A stretch of 60,327 nucleotides of DNA from Chloroflexota bacterium. GTDB lineage: Bacteria; Chloroflexota; Dehalococcoidia; Dehalococcoidales; UBA2162. Shown piece after piece: positions 1 through 60,327 of the stretch (its first letter is position 1; every line of letters starts with the position of its first letter). The stretch covers positions 1 through 60,327 of the forward strand of contig JAZDPB010000174.1 in the NCBI GenBank assembly GCA_043797985.1, written 5' to 3'. Made by a program: the position numbers and the translations under genes. The notes under the pieces were generated by a model. That model saw only the letters and a program-made list of their open reading frames with translations. It had not been told where the DNA came from and did not search any database.

Positions 1-825
<825 letters not shown>

Positions 826-46811: not shown

Positions 46812-47168
46812 ATCCCTCTCACTTCTCCCTTTACGAAAGGGAGAAGACCTATATCTCCCCCTTTGGCAAAGAGCCTGCCGCCGTTCCTCCTGAACTATGG
46901 CAGGCGGGGGACTAAGGGGATTTCCATCTCTCTGTTTATTATTATTCCTTCCTCACTACGGGGAGGTTGATGAAAGAGGGGCTACCGCCCCTCTTAATTT
47001 TCTACCCTATTATACAAAAATATTCAAACTTGTGTGAGTCTAAGAGAGGCAAAGCCTCTCTTACCTTTGCTCCCCTTTCCCTTAACGAAGGGGATACAGG
47101 GGATAGGGTCACCACCTTCTCTCCTGCCCTCCGGATTGCTTCGTCGCTAACGCTCCTCGCAATGACAT
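46812..47168. repeat. ~350-bp array of hairpin repeat modules filling the carA-carB spacer
   Basis: At least seven modules, for example CTTCTCCC-tttacgaaa-GGGAGAAG, GCCTGCCGCC..GGCAGGCGGGGG, AGAGGGGC-tacc-GCCCCTCT, AAGAGAGGC-aaa-GCCTCTCTT, TCCCCTTTCCC..GGGGATAGGG, and CTCCTCGCAATGAC at the right edge. All types recur elsewhere in the window. Confidence 0.8.
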
Positions 47169-47177
47169 TGGGAATAT

Positions 47178-48290
47178 TCATTTCTTTGTTTCCCTTATCA
47201 TTTCCAGAAACCGGTCAAAGAGGTAGGTGTTGTCCCAGGGACCGGGAGACGCTTCGGAGTGATATTGGATAGCGAAGATGGGTAACTCTTTGTGTCTCAA
47301 GCCCTCCACTGTACCGTCGTTCAAGTTTACCTGGGTGACCTCCAAGCCATTCTTGAGAGTATCCGGGTCGACGGCGTAACCGTGGTTTTGAGCCGTGATA
47401 AATATTCTGCCGCTAGACAATTCACGGACGGGATGATTACCGCCGCGGTGACCAAATTTCAGCTTGAAGGTCTTAGCACCGAAGCTGCGGGCAATAAGCT
47501 GAATGCCCAGACAGATACCCATAATCGGCTTCTTACCGATGAGCTGCTTGACTGTGGCTACGATGTAATCCAGTAACGCCGGGTCGCCCGGTCCTGGAGA
47601 CAGGAGAATACCGTCTGGCTTTAAAGAGAGGATTTCTGCCGCAGACATTGTGCAGGGCACGGCGGTTACGCTACAGCCTAAGCGGTTCAGAATACGCAGA
47701 ATGTTATACTTCAAGCCGCAGTCAAGAATGACTACATGGTGTATCGGTGTTGAGACTTCTGGCTGCCACTTGTAGGGGGTTGGGGTGGTTACCTCTTTGA
47801 CAAAATCAATAGAGCCATAACTGGGCACCCGGCGTAATTCTTCCAGAGCCTGTTGCGGCGTCTTGCTGCTGGTTATCATGCCCATCATTACGCCGGATGA
47901 GCGAAGTCGGCGAGTTAACGCCCGGGTGTCTATGCTGTGAATCCCAGGGGTACCGCTTTCCGATAGATATTCGTTAATGGTCTTTTGGCTCATGTAGTGA
48001 CTGGGCTTGAGGCATTGCTCCCTGACAACAAACCCTCGAACCTGTATCTTTGCCGATTCGAAGTCCTGCTCATTAACGCCGTAATTACCGATAAGAGGAT
48101 ACGTGGGAACTAGAATCTGTCCAGCATATGAAGGGTCGGTCAGCATTTCCTGGTAACCAATCATGCTGGTGCAAAATACTACTTCACCAAATGTGTCAGT
48201 CTCACCGCCAAAAGTGTAGCCCTGATGGATGGAGCCGTCTTCTAAAGCTAAAAATGCCTGTTTGCTCACATTGTCCTTTGAAGCACGCAC
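47178..48290 (-). CDS. carA: carbamoyl-phosphate synthase small (glutaminase) subunit
   Basis: 370 aa. Class I amidotransferase nucleophile elbow GICLGIQL and the HRGGNHPV / QYHSEA motifs. Confidence 0.93.
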   Translation of the reverse strand: MRASKDNVSKQAFLALEDGSIHQGYTFGGETDTFGEVVFCTSMIGYQEMLTDPSYAGQILVPTYPLIGNYGVNEQDFESAKIQVRGFVVREQCLKPSHYMSQKTINEYLSESGTPGIHSIDTRALTRRLRSSGVMMGMITSSKTPQQALEELRRVPSYGSIDFVKEVTTPTPYKWQPEVSTPIHHVVILDCGLKYNILRILNRLGCSVTAVPCTMSAAEILSLKPDGILLSPGPGDPALLDYIVATVKQLIGKKPIMGICLGIQLIARSFGAKTFKLKFGHRGGNHPVRELSSGRIFITAQNHGYAVDPDTLKNGLEVTQVNLNDGTVEGLRHKELPIFAIQYHSEASPGPWDNTYLFDRFLEMIRETKK

Positions 48291-48337
48291 TCATTCCACT
48301 GTATTGGAACTGAGCGTGTCGGGTTACTCTATAAACT

Positions 48338-49681
48338 TTACAGTATTGGCAGATATTTTTCAAGTTCATAGTCGGTAACACGGACCCGATACTGGTCCCA
48401 CTCGATTCGCTTGTTCTCAATGAAAGCATTGAAGACATGGTCACCAAGGGCTTTTCGTACCAGTTCACTCTTTTCAGTGAGCTGAATCGCTTCCCAGAGA
48501 CTGGCCGGCAGGGTGCCTATACCCCGCTTCTTTCGTTCTTCCTCGGTCATTTTATAGACATTTTCTTCGACAGGGGCCGGAGGTTCGAGATGTCGCTCGA
48601 TTCCATCCAGTCCGGCAGCCAGCATCACGCTGAAGCAAAGATAAGGATTGCAGGCTGGGTCAGGCGAACGAAACTCGATTCGGGTGGCGTTTTCCTTGCC
48701 CGGCTTGTATTCTGGAACACGGATGAGGTCAGCCCGGTTCCGTCGTGCCCAGGAGAGATAGACTGGTGCTTCGTAGCCAGGGACCAAGCGTTTATAGGAA
48801 TTAATCCACTGGTTATTAATGGCGGTAATTTCAGGGGCATGCTCGAGCAGTCCGGCAATATAGCTCTTGGCTAGCTTAGAGAGGTAGTATTTATCGTTTT
48901 TATCGAAAAAGGCATTTCTTCCGTCTTTGAAGAGTGACTGGTGGACATGCATACCACTACCATTGACGCCGAAAACGGGCTTGGGCATAAAAGTGGCATA
49001 GACCCCCTGCCTTAGGGCGGTTTCCTTGACAACCAGCCGGTAGGTCATTACATTATCTGCCATTGTCAGAGCATCGGTGTACCTCATATCTATCTCGTGC
49101 TGGCTGGGAGCCACTTCGTGGTGAGAATATTCAACACCAATACCCATCTCTTCCAGAGTAAGTACTGTCTCTCGTCTTAAGTCAGTGGCCGCATCAAGTG
49201 GTATCATATCGAAATAGCCCCCCGCGTCGAGAGGCTCAGTCCCCTTGGAGTCTTTGAAATAGAAATACTCAAGCTCGGGTCCCACATAGTAGGTGTAACC
49301 CATATCCGCTGCCCGTTTCAGGTTTCGCTTTAAGACATACCTGGGGTCACCTTCGAAGGGCTCGCCGCCTGGTCTCAGAATGTCGCAGAACATCCGCGCT
49401 ACCGCCGCATGCTCTTTGGGTCGCCAGGGAAGAAGTTGAAAGGTGTCGGGGTCGGGGAGAGCCATCATATCACTCTCATCAATGCGGGCAAATCCTTCAA
49501 TCGAGGAACCATCGAATCCCATTCCCTCTTCCAGTGCGCCTTCCAGTTCCTCTATCGTGATGGCAAAGCTTTTAAGTATACCCAGAATGTCACTAAACCA
49601 CAATCGGATAAATTTAACGTCGTGCTCTTTAGACACTTTCAGCACATAATCCTTGCTTTCTTCGAAAGTCCGTTTTTGCAT
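48338..49681 (-). CDS. glnA: glutamine synthetase, type I (short, alpha-like form)
   Basis: 447 aa. FDGSSIEGF, GPELEYFYF, NGSGMHVHQSL and RIEFRSPD motifs. No adenylylation-loop Tyr context is obvious. Confidence 0.92.
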   Translation of the reverse strand: MQKRTFEESKDYVLKVSKEHDVKFIRLWFSDILGILKSFAITIEELEGALEEGMGFDGSSIEGFARIDESDMMALPDPDTFQLLPWRPKEHAAVARMFCDILRPGGEPFEGDPRYVLKRNLKRAADMGYTYYVGPELEYFYFKDSKGTEPLDAGGYFDMIPLDAATDLRRETVLTLEEMGIGVEYSHHEVAPSQHEIDMRYTDALTMADNVMTYRLVVKETALRQGVYATFMPKPVFGVNGSGMHVHQSLFKDGRNAFFDKNDKYYLSKLAKSYIAGLLEHAPEITAINNQWINSYKRLVPGYEAPVYLSWARRNRADLIRVPEYKPGKENATRIEFRSPDPACNPYLCFSVMLAAGLDGIERHLEPPAPVEENVYKMTEEERKKRGIGTLPASLWEAIQLTEKSELVRKALGDHVFNAFIENKRIEWDQYRVRVTDYELEKYLPIL

Positions 49682-49762
49682 TTTCCTCTCCTTATTAAAT
49701 AGTCTAAGATAACACTTCAGATTTTCATTTCTTCACAGTTTACACTGTTTTACCTCCATTTT

Positions 49763-50104
49763 TCAAATTGCATTATCGCCCTCCTCGCCAGTTATGACGC
49801 GAACAGCGTTTTCGACCGGAATAACAAAGAGCTTACCGTCGCCTATCTCTCCAGTTCGGGTAACGGTGGTAATTGCATTCAATATTTTAGGTGTATCCTC
49901 ATCTAAGACAACCACCTCGACCTTAATCTTAGGTAAAAAATCTACTTTATATTCTCCCACCCGCCATTGCAGGGTGAGTCCCCCCTGCCGTCCTCGTCCA
50001 CTAACTTTAGTGACCGTCATACCCAGATAGCCATTAGCCTCGAGTGCTTCTTTGACAGCATCCAGCTTCTCTTCACGGATAATAGCTTCTATTTTCTTCA
50101 TCAT
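49763..50104 (-). CDS. glnB: PII nitrogen regulatory protein
   Basis: 113 aa. MKKIEAIIR..., T-loop GRGRQGGLTLQWRVGEYKVDF (Trp where E. coli PII has Tyr51), C-terminal TGEIGDGKLFV. It overlaps the amt stop. Confidence 0.92.
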   Translation of the reverse strand: MMKKIEAIIREEKLDAVKEALEANGYLGMTVTKVSGRGRQGGLTLQWRVGEYKVDFLPKIKVEVVVLDEDTPKILNAITTVTRTGEIGDGKLFVIPVENAVRVITGEEGDNAI

Positions 50105-51330
50105 AGCATCCCTCCGTATGCCGTCTCACCGTGTTGCGAAATGTCCAATCCCACCGTTTCTTCTGTCGGGCTGACACGCAAGCCCATGGTGGCATCCACC
50201 AGCTTGCCCAGAATCCAGGTAATAGCGAAGGCATAAGCACCAACCGCAATGACACCGAGAAATTGCTTTAGGAGTGGCATTACGTTGCCCGAGAGCAAAC
50301 CGTCAGCCCCGGCGGAGTTGACAGCAATGCTGGCAAAAATACCTGTAGCCAGAGTGCCCCAGATACCGCCAATGCCATGGCAGGCGAAGACATCCAGAGA
50401 ATCATCTACGCCGCGCTTTATCTTGAAAAAGAACATGCCGTAGTAAGCGGCAATTGCCGCTACAGCACCTATCGGAATACCAGCCAGCGGAGGTACGAAA
50501 CCGGCAGCCGGAGTTATGGCAGCCAAACCGACCACGGCCCCGGTAATCGTACCTAGTATAGTGGGACGGCGGTGGAGCCAGCTAACTATCATCCAGGTGA
50601 AAGCCGCCGCTGCACCGGCGGTGTTGGTGGTAACAAAAGCACTGGCAGCTAGTCCATTGGAAGCCAGAGCGCTGCCGGCATTGAAGCCGAACCAGCCAAA
50701 CCAGAGCAGTCCAGCACCAAGCACCACCATAGGTATGTTGTTAGGCTCCATAGGTTCTTTGGGAAAACCCCGGCGTCTGCCCAGCAGTAGGGTCAAAGCT
50801 AGAGCCGAGACGCCAGCATTAATGTGGACAACGGTACCGCCAGCGAAGTCAAGAACACCAAGCTTCATGAGCCAGCCGCCACTGCCCCAAACCCAGTGGG
50901 CTACAGGGCAATAGACCAGGGTAAACCATAGAGCTGAAAAGATAAGAAGGGAGCCAAATTTTAAGCGCTCGACAACGGCACCGGTAATCAGGGCTACCGT
51001 GATAATGGCGAACATTGCTTGAAATATCATAAAAGCGAGGTGAGGTACGGTGCTGGCATAGAGTGGTGATGGTTCCTGTCCCACACCAGCTAAACCTACA
51101 AAATCTAGCCCGCCAATAAAACCACCGTCACTACTGAAGCTCAAGCTATATCCATACAGAATCCAGAGCAGACCAGCCAAACCAAGGGCGATAAAGCTCA
51201 TCATTATGGTGGAAAGGATGTTTTTCCTTCTCACCATGCCGCCGTAGAATAGGGCTACGCCCGGTGTCATTAACATGACCAGCGCCGCTGAAACCAAAAG
51301 CCAGGCAGTATCGGCAGGATTAATAACCAT
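50101..51330 (-). CDS. amt: ammonium transporter
   Basis: 409 aa, 11 TM. AGGTVVHINAG and FGWFGFNAGS motifs. Classic amt-PII pair. Confidence 0.93.
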   Translation of the reverse strand: MVINPADTAWLLVSAALVMLMTPGVALFYGGMVRRKNILSTIMMSFIALGLAGLLWILYGYSLSFSSDGGFIGGLDFVGLAGVGQEPSPLYASTVPHLAFMIFQAMFAIITVALITGAVVERLKFGSLLIFSALWFTLVYCPVAHWVWGSGGWLMKLGVLDFAGGTVVHINAGVSALALTLLLGRRRGFPKEPMEPNNIPMVVLGAGLLWFGWFGFNAGSALASNGLAASAFVTTNTAGAAAAFTWMIVSWLHRRPTILGTITGAVVGLAAITPAAGFVPPLAGIPIGAVAAIAAYYGMFFFKIKRGVDDSLDVFACHGIGGIWGTLATGIFASIAVNSAGADGLLSGNVMPLLKQFLGVIAVGAYAFAITWILGKLVDATMGLRVSPTEETVGLDISQHGETAYGGML

Positions 51331-51352
51331 CTTATACCTCCAAGCTTAGATG

Positions 51353-51389
51353 GTTTCAGTTTAGCGCTTAATTGTTTCCAAATTATTAC
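51353..51389 (-). promoter_or_regulatory. direct GAAAC repeats / GlnR-box-like motif upstream of amt
   Basis: Minus-sense GTAAT-AATTTG-GAAAC (51374-51389) and a second GAAAC 21 nt downstream (51353-51357), between the atypical regulator gene and amt. A related GTAAA-N6-TAAAC lies at 49738-49753 upstream of glnA. Purely a pattern match. Confidence 0.2.
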
Positions 51390-51407
51390 CGCCGTATTAA
51401 ATTTTTG

Positions 51408-52091
51408 TTACGCGATGTTGTCTTCTTTGAATTTATAACCTATATTTCTCACCGTCTCAATAAAGGAGTGGCTCGGGTCCTCAATCTTACTTCGGAGTCT
51501 TCTTATGTGAACATCCACCGTCCTATCCCCACCATAATAATCGTAGCCCCAGACCTTATCGAGTAGGGCATCGCGAGTGAATACGCGACCTTTATTACCG
51601 GCCAGAAACTTAAGCAACTGGTATTCCATGAAGGTCAGCATTATCACTCTGCCGCACAAGGTGACTTCACACTTAGCCTGGTTTATTAATAGGTCGCTAC
51701 ACGTAATTAGTGTGCCGTCATCTGTTCGCTTAGTATCCTGGAGCAGCCGTTTTATCCTTACACTTACTTCTCTCAGGTCGTAGGGTTGGACTACAAAATC
51801 ATCTATCATGTCCAGATAACTATCGTTGTTATCGAGTATCTCCCCAGTAATCAAAGCAATAACCGGCAATTGTCGTTCTTGTTTTATTCGCCGGAAGATT
51901 TCCGCAGTGCCAGAAGCAGAGCGGTTACTATCCATTTCGAAAATGATTAGTGCTGGAGACTGGCGGGCGACCTGCTCTATTACCCTTTCGCTAAGAGAAG
52001 CGGTCGAACAGGTGAAGCCCTTCTGGACAAGTCCCGCACGCAATTCTTCACGTGTCTTACTTTCCTGAGCTATTATCAACAAATCGAGCAA
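51408..52091 (-). CDS. orphan OmpR-family regulator with aspartate-less (atypical) receiver domain
   Basis: 227 aa. TTG start with GGGGGAG 7 nt upstream. The receiver reads LLIIAQES (no DD pair), ALIIFEMD (Glu at the expected phospho-Asp position by eye) and DDFVVQPY (Gln for the conserved Lys). The C-terminal Trans_reg_C domain is intact (VHIRRLRSKIE...VRNIGYKF). Confidence 0.75.
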   Translation of the reverse strand: MLDLLIIAQESKTREELRAGLVQKGFTCSTASLSERVIEQVARQSPALIIFEMDSNRSASGTAEIFRRIKQERQLPVIALITGEILDNNDSYLDMIDDFVVQPYDLREVSVRIKRLLQDTKRTDDGTLITCSDLLINQAKCEVTLCGRVIMLTFMEYQLLKFLAGNKGRVFTRDALLDKVWGYDYYGGDRTVDVHIRRLRSKIEDPSHSFIETVRNIGYKFKEDNIA

Positions 52092-52115
52092 GATTCTACT
52101 CCCCCTAATTGGTAA

Positions 52116-53111
52116 TCAACTCCAAGAGTGTCCCAATCTTTCAAAGTCGATGGTACCGCTCAAAGGGTGATTTATCACTTCTATCCCTGCTTCCGCAATA
52201 GCCGCCACCATATTCAAGCCATCGGCAAGTACCATGCCAACTCTGTTCGCTGCAACTGAAAGCTGACAGACGGTCTCGCCTATTCCTCCAAGAATAATCA
52301 ATCCCGTCATGCCTGCTACCTTTAACTCTTGGATAATTGCCTCTGCGTTTGTTCGACCGATGGCTGGTATTTCACAAAAGCTAGCCAATATATTACCATT
52401 ACCCTCTCTGGCCACATTACCGACTGAGGTCATTTTACTAGCGATGAATACCTTAGATGGGTCTAGTGAGCAACCGGCATATTCAATAAGGTCAACAAAG
52501 CGCAAAGCTTCATGGTTCCGAATCTGGATTATACCTCCGAATCTGGAATCCACTGGTATTCCGGCCCTTATCAAAGCCCCACAGGCTACGATGTGGGATA
52601 CTGTAGCTAAGCCGACCTTGCCTGTGGGCACAGTTACTTCCCCCAAATTTTCTCCTTCAAGAGCTACGGCTGTTAAGTCACTAATTCCAAGTGCAGAAAG
52701 GGAAATGCCTTTCACGGCTTCTATGGCTTGACTGAGTTTATCACTGGAGAACAATGACACATTGATGGGTACCTTTCCCATCCGTTTCTCAGGGTCGAAA
52801 GAGCTTTGGTAAGCTAGCGTTTCAATCTTGCTAGCCACCAAGCCTACCCGGTCGCTAACTAAGGCACTACCGAGTTCTTCGAGTCCGAATTTGGTAATCG
52901 ACCTGCCATCTCTCGTGCCAACAGTATGGGTAAGACCTCGTTCGTCCATGAACTTGAGGTGGTATCTCACTACTCTCTCACCTAAATCAATGCCTAGGTC
53001 ACAAAGTCGCCGAGCCAGAACTCTACCACCGAGAGGCCGTGGTGAATCGCTAAGTACCTTAAGAATCGCTATCGTCTTTCTCTCTATATCATTAGTTTGT
53101 TGACCTATCAT
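52116..53111 (-). CDS. nrpR: NrpR-type nitrogen regulator, copy 2
   Basis: 331 aa, collinear with copy 1 (roughly half the residues identical by eye, for example FDPEKR..PIN.SL, GLATV, AGIP..S.FGG, VGMVL, AGIEV). Confidence 0.72.
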   Translation of the reverse strand: MIGQQTNDIERKTIAILKVLSDSPRPLGGRVLARRLCDLGIDLGERVVRYHLKFMDERGLTHTVGTRDGRSITKFGLEELGSALVSDRVGLVASKIETLAYQSSFDPEKRMGKVPINVSLFSSDKLSQAIEAVKGISLSALGISDLTAVALEGENLGEVTVPTGKVGLATVSHIVACGALIRAGIPVDSRFGGIIQIRNHEALRFVDLIEYAGCSLDPSKVFIASKMTSVGNVAREGNGNILASFCEIPAIGRTNAEAIIQELKVAGMTGLIILGGIGETVCQLSVAANRVGMVLADGLNMVAAIAEAGIEVINHPLSGTIDFERLGHSWS

Positions 53112-53127
53112 ATGTTACCTCGTCACT

Positions 53128-53892
53128 TTAGTAGGCATAGAGCCTACCATAAGGTCGGAGCCAGCGAGGGAACAGTTTTACAAACTGGCGACTTAGTATC
53201 GCTTTGGCCTTATAGTCGAAGTACGCAGCGAATTTATTTACTAATTGCTCAAGAATCGAGTAGTCTTTCTCGTCCAGTTCAGCGACGCCGACTTCTTTAC
53301 CCAATTGATAGGTTTCTACGCTCCCTCTTAAGTAGATGACACCGCCGTGCATTCCGGTGCCGATAAATTTTGCTTTGTGATGTTCCCCTTCAGCGAGATT
53401 AAGCCCCAGTAGAACCAAGACACCACCGGCCATATACTCGCCGAGGAAGTCCTGGGCAGTGCCGCCGATAACCAGCATGGGTTTCTTATCCTGATACTCT
53501 TTCATGTGGATGCCGGCACGATACCCAACATCATCTCGAACGAAAATCTCGCCACCTCTAGCTGATAAGCCGATAATGTCTCCGGCATGGCCATGAACGA
53601 TTATTTCGCCGCTGTTCATGGTATTGCCGCAGCCGTCTTGAGCGTTGCCGTGGATAATAACCCGGGGTCCATCCATGAAGGCTCCTAGGTCATTACCGGG
53701 AGTGCCAAATATCTCAATATCTATTGGCTTGTTTAGGTCGGTACCAATGTATCTTTGCCCACAGACATTGTGGAGCTCGATTCTCTCGGTGCCATTTGAG
53801 ACTATCTCTCTAAGCTTGGCATTAAGCTCCCGGTAATAAACGCCAGCGGCGTCTATCTTTATCGTCGAGCATACTTCAGATTTCATCTTCAA
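53128..53892 (-). CDS. glutamate synthase GXGXG (GltB C-terminal) domain protein
   Basis: 254 aa. Repeated GxxGxxxG beta-helix motifs (HGNAQDGCGNTMNSGEIIVHGHAGD, GGTAQDFLGEYMAGG, GTGMHGG). The start overlaps the upstream gene stop (ATGA). Confidence 0.85.
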   Translation of the reverse strand: MKMKSEVCSTIKIDAAGVYYRELNAKLREIVSNGTERIELHNVCGQRYIGTDLNKPIDIEIFGTPGNDLGAFMDGPRVIIHGNAQDGCGNTMNSGEIIVHGHAGDIIGLSARGGEIFVRDDVGYRAGIHMKEYQDKKPMLVIGGTAQDFLGEYMAGGVLVLLGLNLAEGEHHKAKFIGTGMHGGVIYLRGSVETYQLGKEVGVAELDEKDYSILEQLVNKFAAYFDYKAKAILSRQFVKLFPRWLRPYGRLYAY

Positions 53893-55394
53893 CTCCCCGC
53901 TAATCTTACCCCTAAGGTTTCGAGTTCGGTATCGGTAAGTCCGATACCCCTTAAGTGTAGCCGATTGCCACGGAGGCTCTCGATAGCGTTGACGCCAAGC
54001 CCACCCAGTATATCTTTTATCTCACTGCTCCAGCCGCGGAGCAGGTTGGACAGTCGGCGGGCACCAATTTCGGGATTCACTCTCTTTGTCAGTCGGAGGT
54101 CGGTGGTGCATATACCCCAGGCACATTTTCCGGTATGGCATTGCTGACAGACGGTACAGCCCAGAGCTACCAGCGCCGCTGTTCCGATGTACACGGCATC
54201 GGCACCCAGAGCGATAGCCTTGGCCACATCACCGCTATTTCTGATACCACCAGAGACCACAATAGAAGCTTGGTTTCGTATCCCTTCCTGGCGTAAACGG
54301 CTATCCACCGTGGCCAGTGCCATCTCAATCGGAATGCCTACATTGTCACGGATAATCTTGGGGGCAGCGCCAGTGGCTCCCCTCAGACCATCAAGAACAA
54401 TGATGTCAGCTCCGGCACGCACCATACCACTGGCGATTGCCGCCGAGTTATGGACAGCGGCAATCTTGACCGATACTGGCTTGGTATAGTTAGTTGCCTC
54501 CTTCAGGGCATATATAAGCTGCGCCAGGTCTTCAATAGAGTAAATATCATGCTGCGGTGCGGGCGATAGGGCGTCCGTACCCTGCGGAATCATCCGCGTC
54601 AACGACACTTCAGCACTTACCTTTTCTCCTGGGAGGTGCCCACCAATGCCAGGCTTGGCTCCCTGGCCAATCTTAATCTCGATTACTTTGGCTACATCCA
54701 GGTATTCGGAATGAACACCGAAACGCCCAGAAGCTACCTGGACAATGGTATTCTCCCCATACTTGTATAGCTTATGGTGAAGCCCTCCTTCACCAGTGTT
54801 CCACAGAGTACCCATCTCGGTAGCCGCCATAGCAAGAGACTCATGAACATTAAGGCTTACCGCACCATATGACATGGCAGCAAACATCACCGGGACCTCC
54901 AGCTTTACCTGGGGAGCCAGTTCTGTCTTTATACTTAGGTGGTCTGAGTTGAGTTCTATTCGGTCAGGCTTTCGCCCAAGATAAGTGGTAAGCTCCATCG
55001 GTTCACGGAGTGGGTCGATGGATGGATTGGTTACCTGACTGGCGTTAAGCACCAGGTGGTCCCAGTAAATACGCTGGTTTCTATCGTCACCCATCCCGGT
55101 AAGGAGCACTCCGCCGGTCTCTGCCTGCTTAATGATGTCCTCGATTACATCCGGGCGCCAGTTGTAGTTCTCGCGATAGTCTAACGGGTTTCGACTGATA
55201 GTCAGCGCCCGGGTAGGGCAAAAGAGCACGCAGCGATGGCAGCCAACGCAGTTCTCCTCTCGGCTCTTTACTTCATTATCCTCAACATCATAGTAATGAG
55301 TATCGAAAGAGCACTGGTTGACACACACCTGACATTGGATACATCGCTCAGGGTCTCTTCTTATTAAGAATTTCGGTGCCAAATAGGTTTTCAC
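53889..55394 (-). CDS. glutamate synthase FMN-binding domain protein with N-terminal 2x[4Fe-4S] ferredoxin domain
   Basis: 501 aa. CIQCQVCVNQC and CVGCHRCVLFCP, then Glu_synthase core motifs (GEGG, GAKPGIGGHLPG, LDGLRGATGAAP, SGGIRNSGDVAKA). Confidence 0.88.
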   Translation of the reverse strand: MKTYLAPKFLIRRDPERCIQCQVCVNQCSFDTHYYDVEDNEVKSREENCVGCHRCVLFCPTRALTISRNPLDYRENYNWRPDVIEDIIKQAETGGVLLTGMGDDRNQRIYWDHLVLNASQVTNPSIDPLREPMELTTYLGRKPDRIELNSDHLSIKTELAPQVKLEVPVMFAAMSYGAVSLNVHESLAMAATEMGTLWNTGEGGLHHKLYKYGENTIVQVASGRFGVHSEYLDVAKVIEIKIGQGAKPGIGGHLPGEKVSAEVSLTRMIPQGTDALSPAPQHDIYSIEDLAQLIYALKEATNYTKPVSVKIAAVHNSAAIASGMVRAGADIIVLDGLRGATGAAPKIIRDNVGIPIEMALATVDSRLRQEGIRNQASIVVSGGIRNSGDVAKAIALGADAVYIGTAALVALGCTVCQQCHTGKCAWGICTTDLRLTKRVNPEIGARRLSNLLRGWSSEIKDILGGLGVNAIESLRGNRLHLRGIGLTDTELETLGVRLAGS

Positions 55395-55404
55395 TGTTCT
55401 CCCC

Positions 55405-56181
55405 TTAAATTCGTACTGGAACTTTCCGTTTTGCCAGGTATTCCTTTACTTCTGTAATAGAGTAAGTCCCGTAGTGGAAAATACTGGCAGCCAGGACTGC
55501 ATCCGCTTTGCCTGAAACCAGCGCCTGGTACAGGTCTTCCGGCTTGCCAGCACCACCACTGGCTACCACCGGCACAGTGACACTTTCTGAAATTGCTCTA
55601 AGCAGTTCCAGGTCGTATCCGGCTCGAGTTCCATCGGCGTCAATGCTATTCACCACAATTTCACCGGCACCCAGCATGACTGCTTTCTTCGCCCACTCAA
55701 CTGCGTCTAAGCCGGTAGCGCGTCCCCCACCTACCCCGGTGTAGGTAAAGATTTCCCACCGGGCAGGATTTGAGTTGACCACTCTCCTAGCGTCCATACC
55801 CAGCACGATACACTGGTTACCGAAGCGATGAGCACCTTCGGTTATCAGTTCTGGATTGAGTACTGCCGCCGTGTTGATGGAGACCTTATCGGCACCGGAT
55901 TCCAGCATCAACCGCATGTCTTCCACAGTGCGCAGTCCCCCACCGACAGTGAAGGGAATAAATATCTGGCTAGCGGTATGTTCCACTATCTTCAGCATAA
56001 TCGGGCGTTCGTCACTGGAAGCAGTGATGTCGTAGAATACCAGCTCATCGGCACCCTCTTTGTTATAGAAGGCAGCCAGTTCCACCGGGTCGCCGGCGTC
56101 ACGGTGGTCAAGGAACTTCACGCCCTTCACCACCCGGCCATCCTTCACATCGAGACAGGGAATAATTCTTTTCGTCAGCAT
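55405..56181 (-). CDS. hisF: imidazole glycerol phosphate synthase cyclase subunit
   Basis: 258 aa. Canonical [18 protein letters not shown] and ASGGAG motifs. Confidence 0.92.
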
Positions 56182-56182
56182 T

Positions 56183-57376
56183 TTACATCGCTTCCCCGGC
56201 GGTTATTGCTTCCTTATTAGTTATAGATTGCGCCTGGAATACCGTTTTTAATCTACCTATCACTGGTTCGCCACCTGCTGGAATCCACGTTCTGTCCAGT
56301 TCAGGACATATCAGGCGGATAGCAGACTCTTCGGACGAAAGATATATCATGTTACTCTTTTCTCCGACGGTCAGTGGTCGTAATCTGATACGGTCGGTCA
56401 GTCCAATCATTTCCCCGTGATGAGCAACTATTATCGTGAACGGTCCGTTCAAGAGTAAGCTACCATATACCTGACGTAGAGCTTGCATTAGCTTTTGCTC
56501 TTCTTGTGGCATGCGCTCAATGTCGTTCCAGAAAGGCGGTGCCAGTATTTTGGCCACTATGTCCAGTGGCAGGTTGTGCTTACGCATGAGCAAGTCGATA
56601 GCATAAGCTACTACCTCGGTGTCGGTTTGCATTGTGCAATGGTAGCCGAATTGTTCTAAGTAACGACGATTTATTCCGTAGGATGAAATCTCACCGTTGT
56701 GGACCACAGTCCAGTCCAGCATGCAGAACGGGTGAGCTCCACCCCACCACCCGGGTGTATTGGTGGGAAAACGCCCATGTGCCGTCCATAGGTAACCTTC
56801 GTACTCCTCCAAGCGGAAGTAATCAGCTACATCCTCGGGGTAGCCTACACCCTTGAACACTGCCATATTCTTACCGCTAGAAAAGACAAAGCTATCGCCC
56901 AACTGTGTATTTATCTCCATTACCTTGCTTACAACATAATCATCTTCGGATTGCTTCTTGAGTTGTTGCTGTTCTATCTCAAGAAAGTAGCGCCATACTG
57001 CCGGGGGATTTGTCACATTTGATGTCGGTCGGGTAGGTACTTCTTCCTGGTACATCAGGTGAAAATTTGCCCGTAGAAATGCTTCTGTTTCTTGCTGTCC
57101 ACTCTGGCTAAGATACATCAGGTGAAAGGCGTATAAGTCAGCATATTCGGGGTATAGGCCATAGATGGCAAATCCACCACCCAGCCCATTGCCACGGTCA
57201 TGCATATTAGCAATAGCCTTGATGACACCTTCTCCAGAAAACCTCTCGCCTGAGGTATCCATAGCTCCGAATATGGAGCAGGCGTCAATTACCTTGTCAT
57301 CTTGGTTCGGGTTATTTACTTGTCTCAGGTTTTTCACTATAGCTCCTCCTAAAATATGAGTGCTACTCGCCGACAA
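56183..57376 (-). CDS. class II (Ntn) glutamine amidotransferase domain protein (GltB N-terminal domain)
   Basis: 397-aa ORF. AGGAGG-agctata-GTG suggests the real start is at 57337. The catalytic Cys sits in [10 protein letters not shown], 19 residues after that start, so a propeptide is implied. [10 protein letters not shown] and HNGEISSY motifs fit GATase_2. Confidence 0.82.
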
Positions 57377-58710
57377 GCATCTCCTCGGGCACTTCTACGG
57401 AAGTTACCAGGGAAGTTGATTTTGATGTTGGTAATGCTAATTGCGGTCGCCAGATTTCTTCAGGGAGAGATGCCAGGCCAAAATTATCATCAACCAGAGA
57501 CTGCTTGAAGCTGTCGACATTTATTCTGTCTTTCATGAGATTGTAGATAATGCCTGACTTCTCGATATCGCCACTAAAGACCAAGCCTGTTATCAGTCCG
57601 TCTTTTAAGACCATCTTCTTATAGAGATGGTCGTGTTTGGTGGTGATTACCTCGAAACTATCATCAGGTGGGATTGCCATGCCAGCCGAGACAATATTCA
57701 TCCCGAAATATTTCATGGAGTTTATTGCCGTTCCCCCCCCGATATTCAGCTGGAATGCCGGACATATTTAAACCTGCAATCCTTCCTCCCATGTAGGCGT
57801 TAGGCCATACTGGAGCAAGCCGATTCTCTCCATAGACGAAATCGTAAGCCTCAGCGGCATCACCACAGGCATAAACATCATTTATAGATGTAGCCATATG
57901 ACGGTCGACCACTATGCCGCGGTTCGTCCTTATCTGGGTGTCAGCTACAAGCTCAGTGCGTGGCTTGACGCCGATAGCTACAACCACCATCTCGCATGGT
58001 ATCGGTTGTCCATTATCCAGGTTGACACCAGTGGCTTCACCAGGCAAATAGCTGCCAATTTTCACCACCGTACGTCCGGTTATTATCTCAACGCCAGCCT
58101 GTGTCAGAGCCTTCTCCTCCAAAGCTGATGCTTCTTCATCGAGAATAGTATTCAGAATCCGTTCCTTCATCTCAACGATGGTAACCTCAACTCCTCGCTT
58201 CACCAACGCTTCAGTAACACTTATACCGATGAGGCCACCACCAATGACAATAGCCCTGACCTTTCTTCCGTAGTGGTTCAGGAGTTCGTCGATTGTCTTG
58301 GCATCGTCAAGCTTAGTAAAAGTGAAAACTCCTTCTAGCCCGATACCCTCTATTTTGGGAACGATGGGTGAGCCGCCGGTGGCAAACAGTAATTTCTGCC
58401 AGGTTAGCGTTCGCCCGCTATTCAGATTAATGCTACGGTTATTGAAGTTAACCTGCGCTACCTCTTCATTTAGGAGGACACGGATGTTGTTCTTATCATA
58501 GAAATCAGGCAAACGGAATAGCATCCTCTCCAGTGGGCACTTATTAGCTAGATACTCAGAGATAAGCGGTCTTGAGTAGGCAGGGTAAGGCTCATCGGAA
58601 ATTATGGTGATGGTCCCTGCCTTGTCTGTCTCACGGATAGCTTCAGCAGCGCCAATACCTCCGGCGGAATTCCCGATAATCAAATACTTTGTTTTCTCTG
58701 TCTTTGCCAT
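57363..58710 (-). CDS. FAD/NAD(P)-dependent pyridine nucleotide-disulfide-type oxidoreductase (FNOR/NADH-oxidase-like), frameshifted at a G8 run
   Basis: ORFs 57664..58710 and 57363..57716 are two halves of one protein. Removing one C from CCCCCCCC (57733-57740) gives ...IPAEYRGGTAINSMKYFGMNIV.... The motifs are IIGNSAGGIGAAEA and IGGGLIGISVTEA. Confidence 0.8.
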
Positions 58711-58729
58711 TTATTCCTACCTAATCCGG

Positions 58730-59356
58730 CTATACCCTCTTTTTTCCTTTTCCCAGGGCAAGTTTGATGAAATTATCATAAAGCTTAAGTCCAAGCTCAC
58801 CGCTCTTTTCCGGGTGAAACTGGGTGGCTATCAGATTGCCCCGGGTGAGGACACTGCATATCGGGATACCATATTCGGTTTCGCCAGCGACCAGCGACCT
58901 ATCATTAGGTTCTACGTAATAGCTGTGCACGAAGTAGAAGTTAGCTTCATCCGGTATGCCATCGAAAATCGGGTGAGAAATCTTCTGCCTCACCTGGTTC
59001 CAACCCATGTGTGGGACCTTTAACCCGACAGGAAGCCTGCGTACCGTTCCATGTATAATGTCCAGGCATTCATGACCACCGTCTTCTTCGGTGGTGGTAA
59101 ATAAAATTTGAAGTCCGAGGCAAACACCAAGGAAAGGTTTACCTTCGGCAATAAATTGCCGAATCGGGTTGACCAGTCCCAGCGTCTCCAGGTTAGTCAT
59201 GGTGTCAGCCGCTGCTCCAACCCCAGGGAGGATGACCCCTTGGGCAGTAAACATTTCGTGGGGGCTATTGGTTATCTTCGCCTTGTAGCCCAGTTTGCTT
59301 ATGGCGTTTACCACGCTACGCAAATTGCCAGCACCATAATCGATTATAGCAATCAT
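58730..59356 (-). CDS. hisH: imidazole glycerol phosphate synthase glutaminase subunit
   Basis: 208 aa. MIAIIDYGAGNLRSV, nucleophile GVCLGLQ, and HSYY / QFHPEKS motifs. Confidence 0.92.
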   Translation of the reverse strand: MIAIIDYGAGNLRSVVNAISKLGYKAKITNSPHEMFTAQGVILPGVGAAADTMTNLETLGLVNPIRQFIAEGKPFLGVCLGLQILFTTTEEDGGHECLDIIHGTVRRLPVGLKVPHMGWNQVRQKISHPIFDGIPDEANFYFVHSYYVEPNDRSLVAGETEYGIPICSVLTRGNLIATQFHPEKSGELGLKLYDNFIKLALGKGKKRV

Positions 59357-59387
59357 CCTGCTTTTCCCTTTGCTTGCTTATTGAGGT

Positions 59388-59762
59388 TCAATTCTTAACA
59401 GTAACTTCTACTATGTTCTCCCGGGCGATAGCCCTTCCCTTACCATCGTTTTCTTCTTCGATAAAGACATGCATTAATCCCATTATTTCATATTGACCGT
59501 TTTCCAGATTGGTTGTGTCCCACCTGACGGAGAAAGATTTGTGTTCGTCCTGTGATTCTCCGATTTGAATCCAGGTATCAGTATTCTTTTTCCGGTAATA
59601 CCAGGGGTTGTTTATCCTGACAACACGCCCGGTGAGGCCCAACTCTTCTAGCTCCTTGTATAGTCTAGCTTGGTCGTATTCTTCACGCAATAGCACATTC
59701 CCTGAATAGGTTTTGATAACACCGGTAGGAACGAGATAGTGAGGTCCCCAATCGTATGACAT
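59388..59762 (-). CDS. hypothetical protein
   Basis: 124-aa track ORF in operon context. The C-terminal half (FSVRWDTTNLENGQYEIMGLMHVF...VEVTVKN) looks like a small beta-sandwich. No family recognised. Confidence 0.45.
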   Translation of the reverse strand: MSYDWGPHYLVPTGVIKTYSGNVLLREEYDQARLYKELEELGLTGRVVRINNPWYYRKKNTDTWIQIGESQDEHKSFSVRWDTTNLENGQYEIMGLMHVFIEEENDGKGRAIARENIVEVTVKN

Positions 59763-59784
59763 GATACGCCTCCTTTAAATATAT

Positions 59785-60237
59785 TTAATTAACCGTCCTC
59801 TTGCAACTCGATACATACCAGCGCTTCGTTAGGGCAATTGGCAACACATGCCGGGATATTTTCCCCTCACATAGGTCACATTTAAATGCCTTCTTTTGTT
59901 CTTTATCCTGCCTTATTGCACCTAGAGGGCAAACCAACAAACATGTCCAGCAACCAATACATCGTTTCTCATCTACCTTGACCAAGGAACTCATCGGGTC
60001 ACGAGTAAGCGCACCGGTAAGGCAAGCCTGAACACACGGGGCTTCATCGCACTGTTGGCAGCGCACTGAGAAGGATACTGAGCCTCTTTCTTCCACGCGG
60101 AGTCGGGGTAAGATAGGTGGTGACTCGTGCTTGAAAGCCTTAATCAGGTCTTTCGATTGTGCATGTTGGAACCGGCAATACACCTCACAGAGATGACAGC
60201 CCATGCAAATGTCTTCTTTAACATAAATCCTTTTCAT
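59785..60237 (-). CDS. CooF/HycB-like multi-[4Fe-4S] ferredoxin, apparent frameshift near the 3' end
   Basis: 150-aa ORF with CMGCHLCEVYC, CQQCDEAPCVQAC, CIGCWTCLLVCP and KCDLCEG. After the run at about 59857-59866, the -1 frame reads IPACVANCPNEALVCIELQEDG (stop 59789-59791). That completes the fourth cluster motif, so a 1-nt indel is likely. Confidence 0.8.
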   Translation of the reverse strand: MKRIYVKEDICMGCHLCEVYCRFQHAQSKDLIKAFKHESPPILPRLRVEERGSVSFSVRCQQCDEAPCVQACLTGALTRDPMSSLVKVDEKRCIGCWTCLLVCPLGAIRQDKEQKKAFKCDLCEGKISRHVLPIALTKRWYVSSCKRTVN

Positions 60238-60258
60238 CTTTTCGATTCCCTTTGGTGG

Positions 60259-60313
60259 ACGGCAACCGATTGCCGTATGCCATCATGCTAGCATATCCTT
60301 CTCGGTTTGTCAA
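60259..60313 (-). promoter_or_regulatory. candidate promoter plus perfect palindrome at the head of the minus-strand nitrogen block
   Basis: Minus-sense TTGACA (60308-60313), 17-nt spacer, TAGCAT (60285-60290), then ACGGCAA-TCGG-TTGCCGT (60259-60276), 22 nt before the ferredoxin ATG. Confidence 0.35.
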
Positions 60314-60327
60314 TACCCCCTATAAAA

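Follow-up and report, generated by a model that had tools for sequence, protein, structure and literature searches.

A Dehalococcoidia nitrogen operon for a split glutamate synthase with a probable dedicated electron-input module

Introduction

What supplies electrons to a glutamate synthase (GOGAT) whose domains are divided among separate genes and that has no GltD encoded beside it? The question is raised by one end of the 60,327-nucleotide stretch of Chloroflexota DNA analysed here (the window), in which a first-pass annotation proposed that a flavoprotein and a ferredoxin act as an NAD(P)H-dependent substitute for GltD. We favor, as rather probable, the reading that positions 60313 to 53128 make up a single nitrogen-controlled operon for a five-subunit split glutamate synthase with a dedicated electron-input module. 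The electron-input reading is not new, since the five-gene set is already represented by the gogat cluster of C. thermocellum.

Results and Discussion

Organization of the operon

Reading along the minus strand, on which every gene lies, the order is four-cluster ferredoxin, a 124-residue open reading frame (orf124), hisH, flavoprotein, GOGAT amidotransferase, hisF, Fer4-FMN subunit, GXGXG subunit and NrpR (Table 1), with intergenic gaps of -14 to +31 nt. Pfam and NCBIfam matches bear out the earlier description of the three GltB domains as separate genes, and together with the gaps they agree with its tightly packed string holding a CooF/HydN-type ferredoxin and a Pyr_redox_2 flavoprotein; the positions that it gave for hisF, between the amidotransferase and FMN genes, and for hisH, further upstream, are likewise confirmed by the TIGR00735 and TIGR01855 matches. 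A search across the 60-kb window for a GltD-like gene, and for his genes besides hisH and hisF, found none, as had been noted. The amidotransferase, previously placed at 56183-57376, is indeed of class II, but its start is more likely the GTG at 57337 that follows an AGGAGG. Its catalytic Cys, in the motif DACSIFG, lies behind a leader of about 19 residues and is kept across phyla, with variable leaders before it. The FMN subunit is 82-91% identical across 80 Dehalococcoidia species.

Table 1. Features of the operon and its upstream region, in coordinates of the window.
Feature	Position	Strand	Basis and remarks
NrpR-family nitrogen repressor	52116..53111	-	NRD1_2 and HTH_12
GXGXG (beta-helix) subunit	53128..53892	-	PF01493, 113 bits
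FMN (synthase) subunit with N-terminal 2x[4Fe-4S] ferredoxin domain	53889..55394	-	PF01645, 468 bits; Fer4 families
hisF, imidazole glycerol phosphate synthase cyclase subunit	55405..56181	-	TIGR00735, 377 bits (cutoff 294.6)
GOGAT glutamine amidotransferase (class II, Ntn)	56183..57337	-	GATase_2; AGGAGG-N7-GTG start
AorC-type FAD/NAD(H) flavoprotein	57363..58710	-	Pyr_redox_2 and Rubredoxin_C; one gene split by an extra G
hisH, imidazole glycerol phosphate synthase glutaminase subunit	58730..59356	-	TIGR01855, 219.5 bits (cutoff 105)
Conserved 124-aa protein, between ferredoxin gene and hisH	59388..59762	-	matches no family
Four-[4Fe-4S] ferredoxin, AorA/WorS/HycB type	59785..60237	-	Fer4_11; frameshifted
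Palindromic operator	60260..60275	.	CGGCAA-N4-TTGCCG, core GGNAA-N4-TTNCC; 23 nt before ferredoxin ATG
Promoter-like site, upstream of ferredoxin gene	60285..60313	-	TTGACA-17-TAGCAT with TG extension

The promoter-like site has the top score in a scan of positions 47000-60327, and a TTGACA/-10 pair occupies the equivalent position in 39 of 54 Dehalococcoidia loci. In 41 of the 54, the operator motif precedes the ferredoxin start by 20-35 nt (background rate, 0.007 per 150 nt), and it also occurs upstream of nrpR-hisF2 units. It is a candidate NrpR site, with NrpR as the probable binder; a paralogue of the repressor lies at 42498-43493, the two copies being 51% identical.

Frameshifts in the ferredoxin and flavoprotein genes

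As assembled, the ferredoxin loses its frame after KCDLCEG, within a T4C4 tract at 59859-59866, and its fourth cluster motif, IPACVANCP, sits in a different frame; one additional base gives a protein of 149 residues with its stop codon at 59789-59791, and in relatives the C-terminus reads ...KCDLCQGEEIPVCVANCPNEAL. The flavoprotein is assembled as open reading frames of 348 (57664-58710) and 117 residues (57363-57716), broken in a coding-strand G8 (plus-strand C8) at 57733-57740; in 59 of 60 relatives it is a single frame of about 440-470 residues. The first-pass annotation had overlooked both frameshifts, as well as orf124.

Should both genes be true pseudogenes, the electron module would be inactivated in this strain and the GOGAT core would run on soluble ferredoxin. 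We regard this as improbable, although the frameshifts do stand in the assembled sequence, comparison with contigs of three metagenomes shows no other coding indel over about 20 kb, and the pair-less clusters of other lineages suggest that the core can stand alone. Each indel is a single-base length change in a homopolymer, neither gene carries additional mutations or stops, and 59 of 60 related species have an intact module. At the flavoprotein site, same-strain evidence comes from a 175-nt metagenome contig that differs from the window just here, with one base fewer at 57733 and thus a frame-restoring G7. The ferredoxin site is covered by metagenome contigs of two related strains, both with one more base in the tract, and short-read contig coverage falls to about zero exactly there, so that polishing would have failed at that site. 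Because the identical contig has one base fewer, the two related strains one more, and nearly all relatives are intact, both frameshifts are most likely homopolymer assembly errors or minority variants.

Relationship of the pair to AorC and AorA

In a PDB search, the closest solved structure to the flavoprotein is AorC (8c0z_E, E 2e-46; residues 9-407 aligned on 3-403), and the ferredoxin matches WorS best (9mqx_E, 3.5e-24); its other matches include AorA (8c0z_C, 7e-17), HycB3/4 and the WOR5 Fe-S subunit. None of the known bifurcating flavoproteins BfuB, NfnB/GltD, EtfAB and HdrA finds a likeness among the flavoprotein's PDB matches. The second GxGxxG is followed by a conserved acidic residue (VEM/VEL), as in NAD-using AorC, which suggests a preference for NADH by one Rossmann-fold rule and by analogy with AorC. 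In the aldehyde oxidoreductase (AOR) of A. aromaticum, 9.5 Å separate cluster FS4 of AorA from the AorC FAD, and through this chain the catalytic site is connected to NAD (PMC10413684).

From its context and homology, the pair is well supported as a putative electron-input module. The amidotransferase, Fer4-FMN and GXGXG subunits would form the catalytic core, and the AorC-type FAD flavoprotein and AorA/WorS-type four-[4Fe-4S] ferredoxin its dedicated electron input, filling the role of GltD in classical NADPH-GOGAT. Electrons would pass from NADH to FAD and the four [4Fe-4S] clusters of the ferredoxin, then by way of the two N-terminal clusters of the FMN subunit to the barrel cluster, FMN and 2-iminoglutarate, with ammonia supplied by the amidotransferase. 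We infer that the five proteins form one complex.

Distribution of the pair among split GOGAT clusters

The first-pass annotation had named co-occurrence of the pair with split GOGAT as a check, and the outcome is positive in both directions. Each of the 39 evaluable Dehalococcoidia loci has the pair within its split-GOGAT cluster, and the synteny ferredoxin-(orf124)-(hisH)-flavoprotein-GAT-(hisF)-FMN-GXGXG holds in every sufficiently flanked locus among the 80 Dehalococcoidia. In other phyla the pair is present within 32 of 52 evaluable GOGAT clusters, in at least four gene orders, with the ferredoxin first and the flavoprotein adjacent without exception; these loci are from Desulfovibrionaceae, Clostridia, the Desulfotomaculum group, Spirochaetota, Phycisphaerae, Actinomycetota, Acidobacteriota and Anaerolineae. 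Conversely, eight flavoprotein homologues sampled across the best 120 matches (39-54% identity to the query) all belong to GAT-FMN-ferredoxin-flavoprotein-GXGXG clusters beside glnA. To call split GOGAT typical of Archaea is too narrow, the five-gene form being widespread in anaerobic bacteria and treated as one cluster in C. thermocellum (PMC9888227, PMC3478167).

These distributions bear on whether the pair has anything to do with glutamate synthase, or is a hitch-hiker in a nitrogen operon as hisH and hisF are; it could, for example, shield Fe-S enzymes as an NADH oxidase, or serve a different enzyme as redox partner, such as the product of the AFOR-family gene at 5549-7408. The operon does tolerate unrelated passengers (hisH, hisF and orf124 here, purA in some Clostridia), an AOR-family gene is within the window, and homologous pairs serve AOR and PadH-type systems. 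We consider a hitch-hiker very improbable, however, given that the pair is embedded among GOGAT genes in many phyla, moving as a unit through varied orders, and that GOGAT linkage extends to every sampled homologue down to 39% identity. The AFOR gene stands alone, 50 kb off, and the flavoprotein reads YSRPLIS as in ferredoxin reductases, without the active-site Cys context of the Nox/CoADR type.

Some clusters do without the pair. In those of Desulfobacterales, GXGXG is fused to a GltD-like protein that occupies the pair's place, and in methanogens an FrhB-like fourth subunit does so (PMC3087415). A further 16 of the 52 other-phyla clusters lack both the pair and any visible substitute nearby (Heliobacterium, Nitratidesulfovibrio); because of these 16, the FMN subunit is presumably able to accept electrons from free ferredoxin through its Fer4 domain. 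The enzyme might then be ferredoxin-driven through this domain, and the pair something other than a plain NAD(P)H input. The pair could tie the NADH and ferredoxin pools to the enzyme as an additional way in or out (two-donor, confurcating or bifurcating), or it could act as a ferredoxin:NAD+ valve. WorS, the best PDB match of the ferredoxin, connects catalytic subunits with a bifurcating core, and AorA-type subunits have branched cluster paths (PMC10413684). In C. thermocellum extracts, neither NADH- nor NADPH-dependent GOGAT activity was measurable, and in the deletion strain product shifts, with a raised H2 yield, pointed to ferredoxin as the reductant (PMC9888227, PMC4676874). We nevertheless think this reading of the pair unlikely, as the likeness of the flavoprotein is to AorC, an FAD subunit that simply reduces NAD, and not to the bifurcating flavoproteins named above, and oxygen-labile clusters may explain the negative assays. 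Moreover, NADH reduction of 2-iminoglutarate is exergonic, and a second donor is thus unneeded. The electron-input role proposed for the pair in place of GltD is upheld by co-occurrence, by AorC/AorA homology and by the alternative modules at the same place, but NAD(P)H as the donor is not backed by the extract assays.

hisH, hisF and orf124

HisH has the catalytic motifs GVCLG and HPE. For hisF, identities as WbuZ and AglZ were rejected, both models scoring below their cutoffs. Copies of the orf124 product, 60-70% identical, are encoded in at least 21 Dehalococcoidia nitrogen clusters; its AlphaFold model (pLDDT 81) shows a beta-sandwich and a single helix, and a Foldseek search of the PDB with this model gave no match at E<=0.001.

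Within the cluster, hisH and hisF are confined to one Dehalococcoidia clade, in which they have been lost about 4-5 times while the remaining cluster was unchanged, and they are absent from all 52 clusters of other phyla. Because the arrangement is Dehalococcoidia-specific and repeatedly lost, we read the interleaving as co-regulation and not co-assembly: of the two suggestions made earlier, co-translational assembly of two ammonia-channelling complexes goes unsupported, and co-regulation with GOGAT is supported by the conserved promoter and operator. The two genes and orf124 would be lineage-specific passengers under the shared promoter and operator, outside the enzyme, a placement that would co-regulate a glutamine-consuming enzyme with glutamine/glutamate metabolism.

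Comparison with known systems

The closest counterpart is the gogat cluster of C. thermocellum, Clo1313_2032-2036 (= Cthe_0197-0201). It comprises the five genes also found here, lies beside glnA, is nitrogen-regulated and has been deleted as one unit (PMC9888227, PMC4676874, PMC3478167); its flavoprotein Cthe_0200 is induced along with GOGAT subunits Cthe_0197 and Cthe_0198 at the protein level (PMC3478167). There the order is GAT-FMN-ferredoxin-flavoprotein-GXGXG, recovered in Clostridial loci of our survey, whereas here it is ferredoxin-...-flavoprotein-GAT-...-FMN-GXGXG; hisH, hisF and orf124 are lacking, and an ANTAR regulator stands instead of NrpR and a GlnR-like regulator. Identity to Clostridial proteins, a set that does not include those of Clo1313, is about 37-45% for the flavoprotein and 40-52% for the ferredoxin.

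The pair itself is closest to that of the Aromatoleum aromaticum tungsten aldehyde oxidoreductase (PDB 8C0Z), in which AorC aligns with the whole length of the flavoprotein, the four Cys motifs of the ferredoxin recur in AorA, and AorC and AorA form a solved FAD-to-[4Fe-4S]4 wire from catalytic subunit to NAD. The catalytic partner there is a tungsten subunit in place of GOGAT, AorA has 192 residues against about 150, and electrons flow outward to NAD+ where we propose inward flow from NADH; for the operon described here, nothing points to filament formation.

Classical GltB/GltD NADPH-GOGAT shares the chemistry, the amidotransferase, FMN and GXGXG modules, and the supply of the FMN site by a separate Fe-S-cluster flavoprotein. 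In the window, however, each GltB domain has a gene of its own, a 2x[4Fe-4S] domain is added to the FMN subunit, no GltD (Fer4_20 plus a GltD-type FAD/NADPH domain) is encoded, and the putative input is shared between two proteins from other families. Pairs of CooF and FNOR near CO dehydrogenase genes, to which the first-pass annotation pointed, likewise consist of a CooF-type ferredoxin with four clusters and a flavoprotein of the Pyr_redox_2 family and are thought to link a metalloenzyme to NAD(P); the likeness is one of description, and their partner enzyme is other than GOGAT. Finally, the split GOGAT of methanogens also joins a split core to a lineage-specific electron-input subunit, in that case a putative FrhB-like, F420-binding fourth subunit proposed to make the enzyme F420-dependent (MTH193; PMC3087415), where the operon described here has an NAD-type flavoprotein and a four-cluster ferredoxin.

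Gene organization of the split glutamate synthase cluster

Nine close-set ORFs running leftward from 60237 to 53128 were located by ORF scan and identified by Pfam and NCBIfam matches (see table). Three of these – a stand-alone class-II (Ntn) glutamine amidotransferase (GAT), an FMN subunit that is a protein of its own with a PF01645 barrel and an N-terminal 2x[4Fe-4S] domain, and a GXGXG (beta-helix) subunit whose gene overlaps the FMN gene by 4 nt – are, as judged from their sequences, the core of a split ('archaeal-type') glutamate synthase (GOGAT), for which a glutamate-forming activity dependent on glutamine and 2-oxoglutarate is predicted. The Cys of 'DACSIFG' in GAT is kept across phyla and lies behind a leader of ~19 residues, so that processing has to be assumed. 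The gene string reported in the first-pass annotation is thus real, although two frameshifts and a 124-codon reading frame, orf124, had escaped notice.

Features of the window, with coordinates
Feature	Position	Strand	Match or remark
Promoter-like TTGACA-17-TAGCAT	60313-60285		
Palindrome CGGCAACCGATTGCCG, candidate operator	60260-60275		
CooF/HydN-type ferredoxin	59785-60237	-	Fer4_11
T4C4 stretch	59859-59866		ferredoxin frameshift
orf124, 124 aa, without family	59388-59762	-	no Pfam family
HisH	58730-59356	-	TIGR01855, 219.5 bits (cutoff 105.4)
Pyr_redox_2 flavoprotein, first ORF	57664-58710	-	Pfam/NCBIfam
Eight-G run (plus-strand C8)	57733-57740		flavoprotein frameshift
Rubredoxin_C-domain ORF, overlaps flavoprotein ORF	57363-57716	-	Pfam/NCBIfam
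GAT, class-II glutamine amidotransferase	56183-57376	-	PF00310
HisF	55405-56181	-	TIGR00735, 377 bits (cutoff 294.6)
Fer4 + Glu_synthase FMN subunit	53889-55394	-	PF01645, 468.5 bits; Fer4 families on residues 11-69
GXGXG subunit	53128-53892	-	PF01493, 113 bits
35-nt repeat GTCATTGCGAGGAGCGTTAGCGACGAAGCAATCCG (minus strand), carA-carB spacer	47133-47167		
AFOR-family tungsten aldehyde:ferredoxin oxidoreductase	5549-7408	-	solitary
5' half of bacterial 16S rRNA gene	1-825	-	Rfam, 801 bits

Neither a GltD-like gene nor any further his gene is present in the 60 kb of the window. A tblastn search with the GltD-like part of a Desulfobacterales fusion protein (locus L156) matched only Fer4 motifs in the window. 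Across 158 other loci, searched to 10 kb around the cluster, the sole genes of GltD type (Fer4_20 and a GltD-type FAD/NAD(P)H domain) were the fusions of L156 and L157. No riboswitch or leader was found in the cluster with Rfam. Downstream of the cluster the order is NrpR, an OmpR-type regulator, amt, glnK, glnA, carA, carB, a second NrpR and a glutamine-dependent NAD synthetase. The closest FMN subunits, 82-91% identical, come without exception from Dehalococcoidia, and the organism is a member of that class; the partial 16S rRNA gene would be useful for placing it.

The orf124 product is conserved and confined to nitrogen clusters of Dehalococcoidia, where its gene occupies this same position or follows glnA. 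Its invariant residues number 35, NPWY and NGQYE among them, and structure prediction gives a beta-sandwich (pLDDT 81) that matches no PDB entry significantly. The 35-nt stretch in the carA-carB spacer has a contig depth of thousands in each of the three groundwater metagenomes compared, where its flanks are unrelated, and is a ubiquitous short repeat.

Frameshifts in the ferredoxin and flavoprotein genes

Two genes of the string, those for the ferredoxin and the flavoprotein (hereafter the pair), are interrupted. The flavoprotein gene is cut in two by a frameshift in the eight-G run; with seven G its frame reads '...PAEYRGGTAINSMKYFGMNIVSAGM...', and 59 of 60 related loci have the flavoprotein uninterrupted in one frame, at about 440-470 aa. 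The ferredoxin departs from its frame past 'KCDLCEG', inside the T4C4 stretch, and the next frame runs on as 'NIPACVANCPNEALVCIELQEDG*', the absent fourth cluster motif; ferredoxins of related loci end '...KCDLCQGEEIPVCVANCPNEAL...'. A 175-nt contig from groundwater run X3 differs from the window solely in lacking one base at 57733. A 96.5% identical strain in run X1 lacks a base there too and has an additional one at the ferredoxin site; the extra base recurs in a 93% identical strain in run X9. No other coding indels relative to groundwater-metagenome contigs are seen over 40.3-57.4 kb. A real double inactivation of both genes in the window's strain is the less probable reading, and nine metagenome runs yielded no same-strain contig across the ferredoxin frameshift. 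We consider it quite likely that both shifts are minority variants or errors at homopolymers. Assembly error is the probable origin of the two broken ORFs, and a pseudogene annotation is unwarranted unless reads support it.

Linkage of the pair to glutamate synthase genes

Wherever the contig is long enough, the 80 loci from Dehalococcoidia species keep the order ferredoxin-(orf124)-(hisH)-flavoprotein-GAT-(hisF)-FMN-GXGXG, and the flavoprotein is present in all 39 evaluable loci. The FMN-subunit homologues listed comprise only relatives at least 86% identical and hence lack diversity; P0121, a 65%-identical representative of another phylum recovered in a 50%-representative search, led to 80 further loci from many phyla, 52 of them evaluable. 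In 32 of these 52 the pair is part of the GOGAT cluster, with the ferredoxin first and the two genes adjacent without exception. The surrounding order varies. Pseudo- and Halodesulfovibrio and Phycisphaerae have FMN-ferredoxin-flavoprotein-GAT-GXGXG; Clostridia, Actinomycetota and Acidobacteriota have GAT-FMN-ferredoxin-flavoprotein-GXGXG; the Desulfotomaculum group and Anaerolinea have ferredoxin-flavoprotein-GAT-FMN-GXGXG; and one Spirochaetota MAG has GAT-GXGXG-FMN-ferredoxin-flavoprotein. That the pair stays among the GOGAT genes despite this reshuffling is strong context evidence. The association was also sampled in reverse, with the flavoprotein of an acidobacterial cluster as query: eight homologues drawn from its best 120, from 54% down to 39% identity, all lie in GAT-FMN-ferredoxin-flavoprotein-GXGXG clusters next to glnA. 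GOGAT genes adjoin the pair in all loci, and the co-occurrence that the first-pass annotation had proposed to examine is found in both directions.

Several individual loci deserve mention. Two clusters (L051 and L098) retain the ferredoxin gene and lack that of the flavoprotein; L051, from a MAG labelled Thermodesulfovibrionales, falls with Dehalococcoidia on the FMN tree, so its bin label may be wrong. A Clostridia MAG (L125) has purA, the adenylosuccinate synthetase gene, between the FMN and ferredoxin genes, and the space between these two is equally large in L126, L127, L129 and L131, of the same group of Clostridia MAGs (L125-L131); purA is another passenger within the cluster. Two apparent fusions of the FMN subunit with ferredoxin or flavoprotein were dropped, P0124 and P0167, one being oddly translated and the other a frameshifted read-through; long FMN-subunit relatives (about 990-1040 aa) have additional Fer4 domains and no Pyr_redox_2 match. 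P0124, a relative of the FMN subunit, is strongly enriched in V, I, F, L and Y and depleted in A, P, T, S and H, resembling a systematic C-to-T-type mistranslation; DNA damage or conversion in a public assembly is its probable origin.

Clusters without the pair have varied neighbors. Two Desulfobacterales loci encode a GXGXG protein fused to a GltD-like module (Fer4_20 + Pyr_redox_2 + Fer4). In three Methanothrix loci (L137, L139 and L159) glnA-GAT-FMN-GXGXG is followed by genes for a 683-aa molybdopterin oxidoreductase and a 145-aa Fer4_11 protein, which may be another type of electron-input module for split GOGAT, and only the three core genes were seen in Heliobacterium, Nitratidesulfovibrio and Thermodesulfatator. 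The split GOGAT of Methanothermobacter has been proposed to depend on F420 and to include a fourth subunit that is FrhB-like (PMC3087415). Given this variety, the core looks like a reductase that lineages couple to modules of their own, or to free ferredoxin via the Fer4 domain of the FMN subunit. The Desulfobacterales fusion (L156:11657-13825, and L157) is a 722-aa protein with a ferredoxin tail, and its gene is followed by those for a 1264-aa GATase/SIS protein, hisH, hisF and nadE.

A predicted AorA/AorC-type electron module

The closest solved structure to the flavoprotein is 8C0Z chain E (E 2e-46), which matches end to end (residues 9-407 against 3-403 of 424). This chain is AorC, which contains FAD and binds NAD in the tungsten aldehyde oxidoreductase (AOR) of Aromatoleum aromaticum. 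PDB matches of the ferredoxin include WorS of Acetomicrobium WorABCSL (9MQX), HycB3/4, the WOR5 Fe-S subunit and AorA (8C0Z chain C), and when the frame switch is followed it has four Cys motifs with 16 liganding Cys. In AOR, four [4Fe-4S] clusters are held by AorA, FS4 lies 9.5 A from the AorC FAD, and the cluster chain is the electron route between the catalytic site and NAD (PMC10413684, PMC12318220). The flavoprotein reads 'YSRPLIS', like ferredoxin and rubredoxin reductases, lacks the Nox/CoADR redox cysteine, and keeps the acidic residue past the second GxGxxG (VEM), as in NAD-using AorC. Unlike in AOR, no tungsten AOR catalytic subunit is associated with the pair, the sole AFOR-family gene in the window being solitary and 50 kb away. 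On these homologies the pair is an AorA/AorC-type module, yet not an AOR.

From the homology to AorC and AorA, the four Cys motifs of the ferredoxin and the motifs of the flavoprotein, we infer a path in which electrons would pass from NADH to FAD, through four clusters to the two clusters of the FMN subunit, and by way of the barrel cluster to FMN. A role for the pair as the electron module of GOGAT is well supported by comparative genomics and by its likeness to a solved NAD-coupling wire.

Histidine genes within the cluster

HisH and HisF exceed the equivalog cutoffs and so score as true imidazole glycerol phosphate synthase subunits; the triad motifs (Cys-His-Glu) of HisH and the Asp residues of HisF in 'CLDV' and 'GMDA' are present on reading of the sequences. 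Both genes lie within the GOGAT cluster in about 30 of 39 evaluable Dehalococcoidia loci and in none of the 52 evaluable loci of other phyla. On the FMN-subunit tree hisF is absent from the outgroups and the earliest Dehalococcoidia branch and present in the main clade, with hisF-less loci nested at five places, and hisH and hisF are jointly present or absent in all Dehalococcoidia loci but L075. This pattern suggests one gain followed by several joint losses that left the GOGAT genes untouched, as expected for co-regulation of a glutamine-consuming enzyme and not for a shared assembly line. The evidence thus points to co-regulation of hisH and hisF with GOGAT rather than co-assembly; both had been suggested from the alternating gene order, and the second idea is not borne out. 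The presence of hisH and hisF in the operon reflects nitrogen-regulon organization and no new enzyme.

A second hisF paralogue, hisF2, scores 327-341 bits on TIGR00735, above the cutoff, and its product is 54-55% identical to the in-cluster HisF. It is found in L161-L169, L030:19408-21209 and L047:19588-21394, immediately after nrpR and with neither hisH nor hisA beside it, and is followed by a gene for a 520-530-aa protein without NCBIfam match, or by gdhA, and then carA. The MAGs W80 and SFP3_RM_33 have both hisF copies, and hisF2 may encode an ammonia-using or differently regulated cyclase.

A candidate operator upstream of the ferredoxin gene

The promoter-like sequence upstream of the ferredoxin gene is conserved in Dehalococcoidia loci, and past its -10 box, 23 nt before the ferredoxin ATG, lies the palindrome. 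Both elements point to the ferredoxin gene as the start of an operon that is probably under nitrogen control. In 41 of 54 Dehalococcoidia loci the core GGNAA-N4-TTNCC stands 20-35 nt ahead of the ferredoxin start; 1.14 Mb of such loci contains 55 copies, 40 of them before the ferredoxin gene, and copies are also found upstream of nrpR-hisF2 units and one orphan hisF2. No copy precedes amt, glnA, carA or either nrpR of the window. Two more window sites, in hisH and hisF, were discounted as chance, being unconserved in relatives and bringing the matches to three against 0.98 expected, a weak excess. The half-sites vary independently, which argues for a protein site and not a hairpin. The NrpR operator of Methanococcus is GGAA-N6-TTCC, which has an equal 14-nt span and the same GG...CC ends; that exact pattern gave a single chance-level match, in carB. 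Two NrpR genes are present in the window and a GlnR-like regulator is encoded nearby too. We regard the palindrome as a candidate bacterial NrpR operator, and its conservation provides a handle on NrpR-type regulation in bacteria.

Relationship to known systems

GOGAT is the chief route of nitrogen into biomass, and the redox balance of anaerobes is shaped by the reductant that it uses. Dehalococcoidia, Clostridia and sulfate reducers are among the anaerobes in which the five-subunit form is common; no measurement of its electron donor is known, the engineered model C. thermocellum included. T. maritima TM0394-0398 may be the same cluster; a literature search by locus tag on Thermotoga, Methanocaldococcus and Dehalococcoides GOGAT genes returned nothing useful.

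The 'gogat cluster' of C. thermocellum consists of the same five genes (Clo1313_2032-2036, Cthe_0197-0201; PMC9888227, PMC4676874, PMC3478167), which have been deleted as one unit (PMC9888227) and are co-expressed (PMC4676874), and whose proteins are co-induced, the flavoprotein Cthe_0200 among them (PMC3478167). GOGAT activity was never measured in this organism, NADH- and NADPH-dependent assays having failed, and H2 yields suggest ferredoxin as the reductant (PMC9888227, PMC4676874). These results weigh most heavily against plain NAD(P)H input and leave room for a ferredoxin-linked or two-donor reading. The proposal that the pair is the electron input has gene context and AorC/AorA homology in its favor, with the negative assays a genuine caveat. 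A two-donor GOGAT, in which the AorA/AorC-type module, possibly by flavin-based confurcation or bifurcation, would join both NADH and ferredoxin pools to glutamate synthesis over a seven-cluster wire, would account for the absent activity with NADH or NADPH alone in C. thermocellum extracts; we nonetheless think it improbable. For input through the pair, the homology yields a concrete and structurally testable prediction, that NADH enters at the FAD and a [4Fe-4S] chain leads to the FMN site. As in the C. thermocellum cluster, an adjacent four-cluster ferredoxin and Pyr_redox_2 flavoprotein are encoded inside the GOGAT cluster; the cluster type is already known, and that of the window is a lineage-specific member of this biochemically uncharacterized form of the enzyme.
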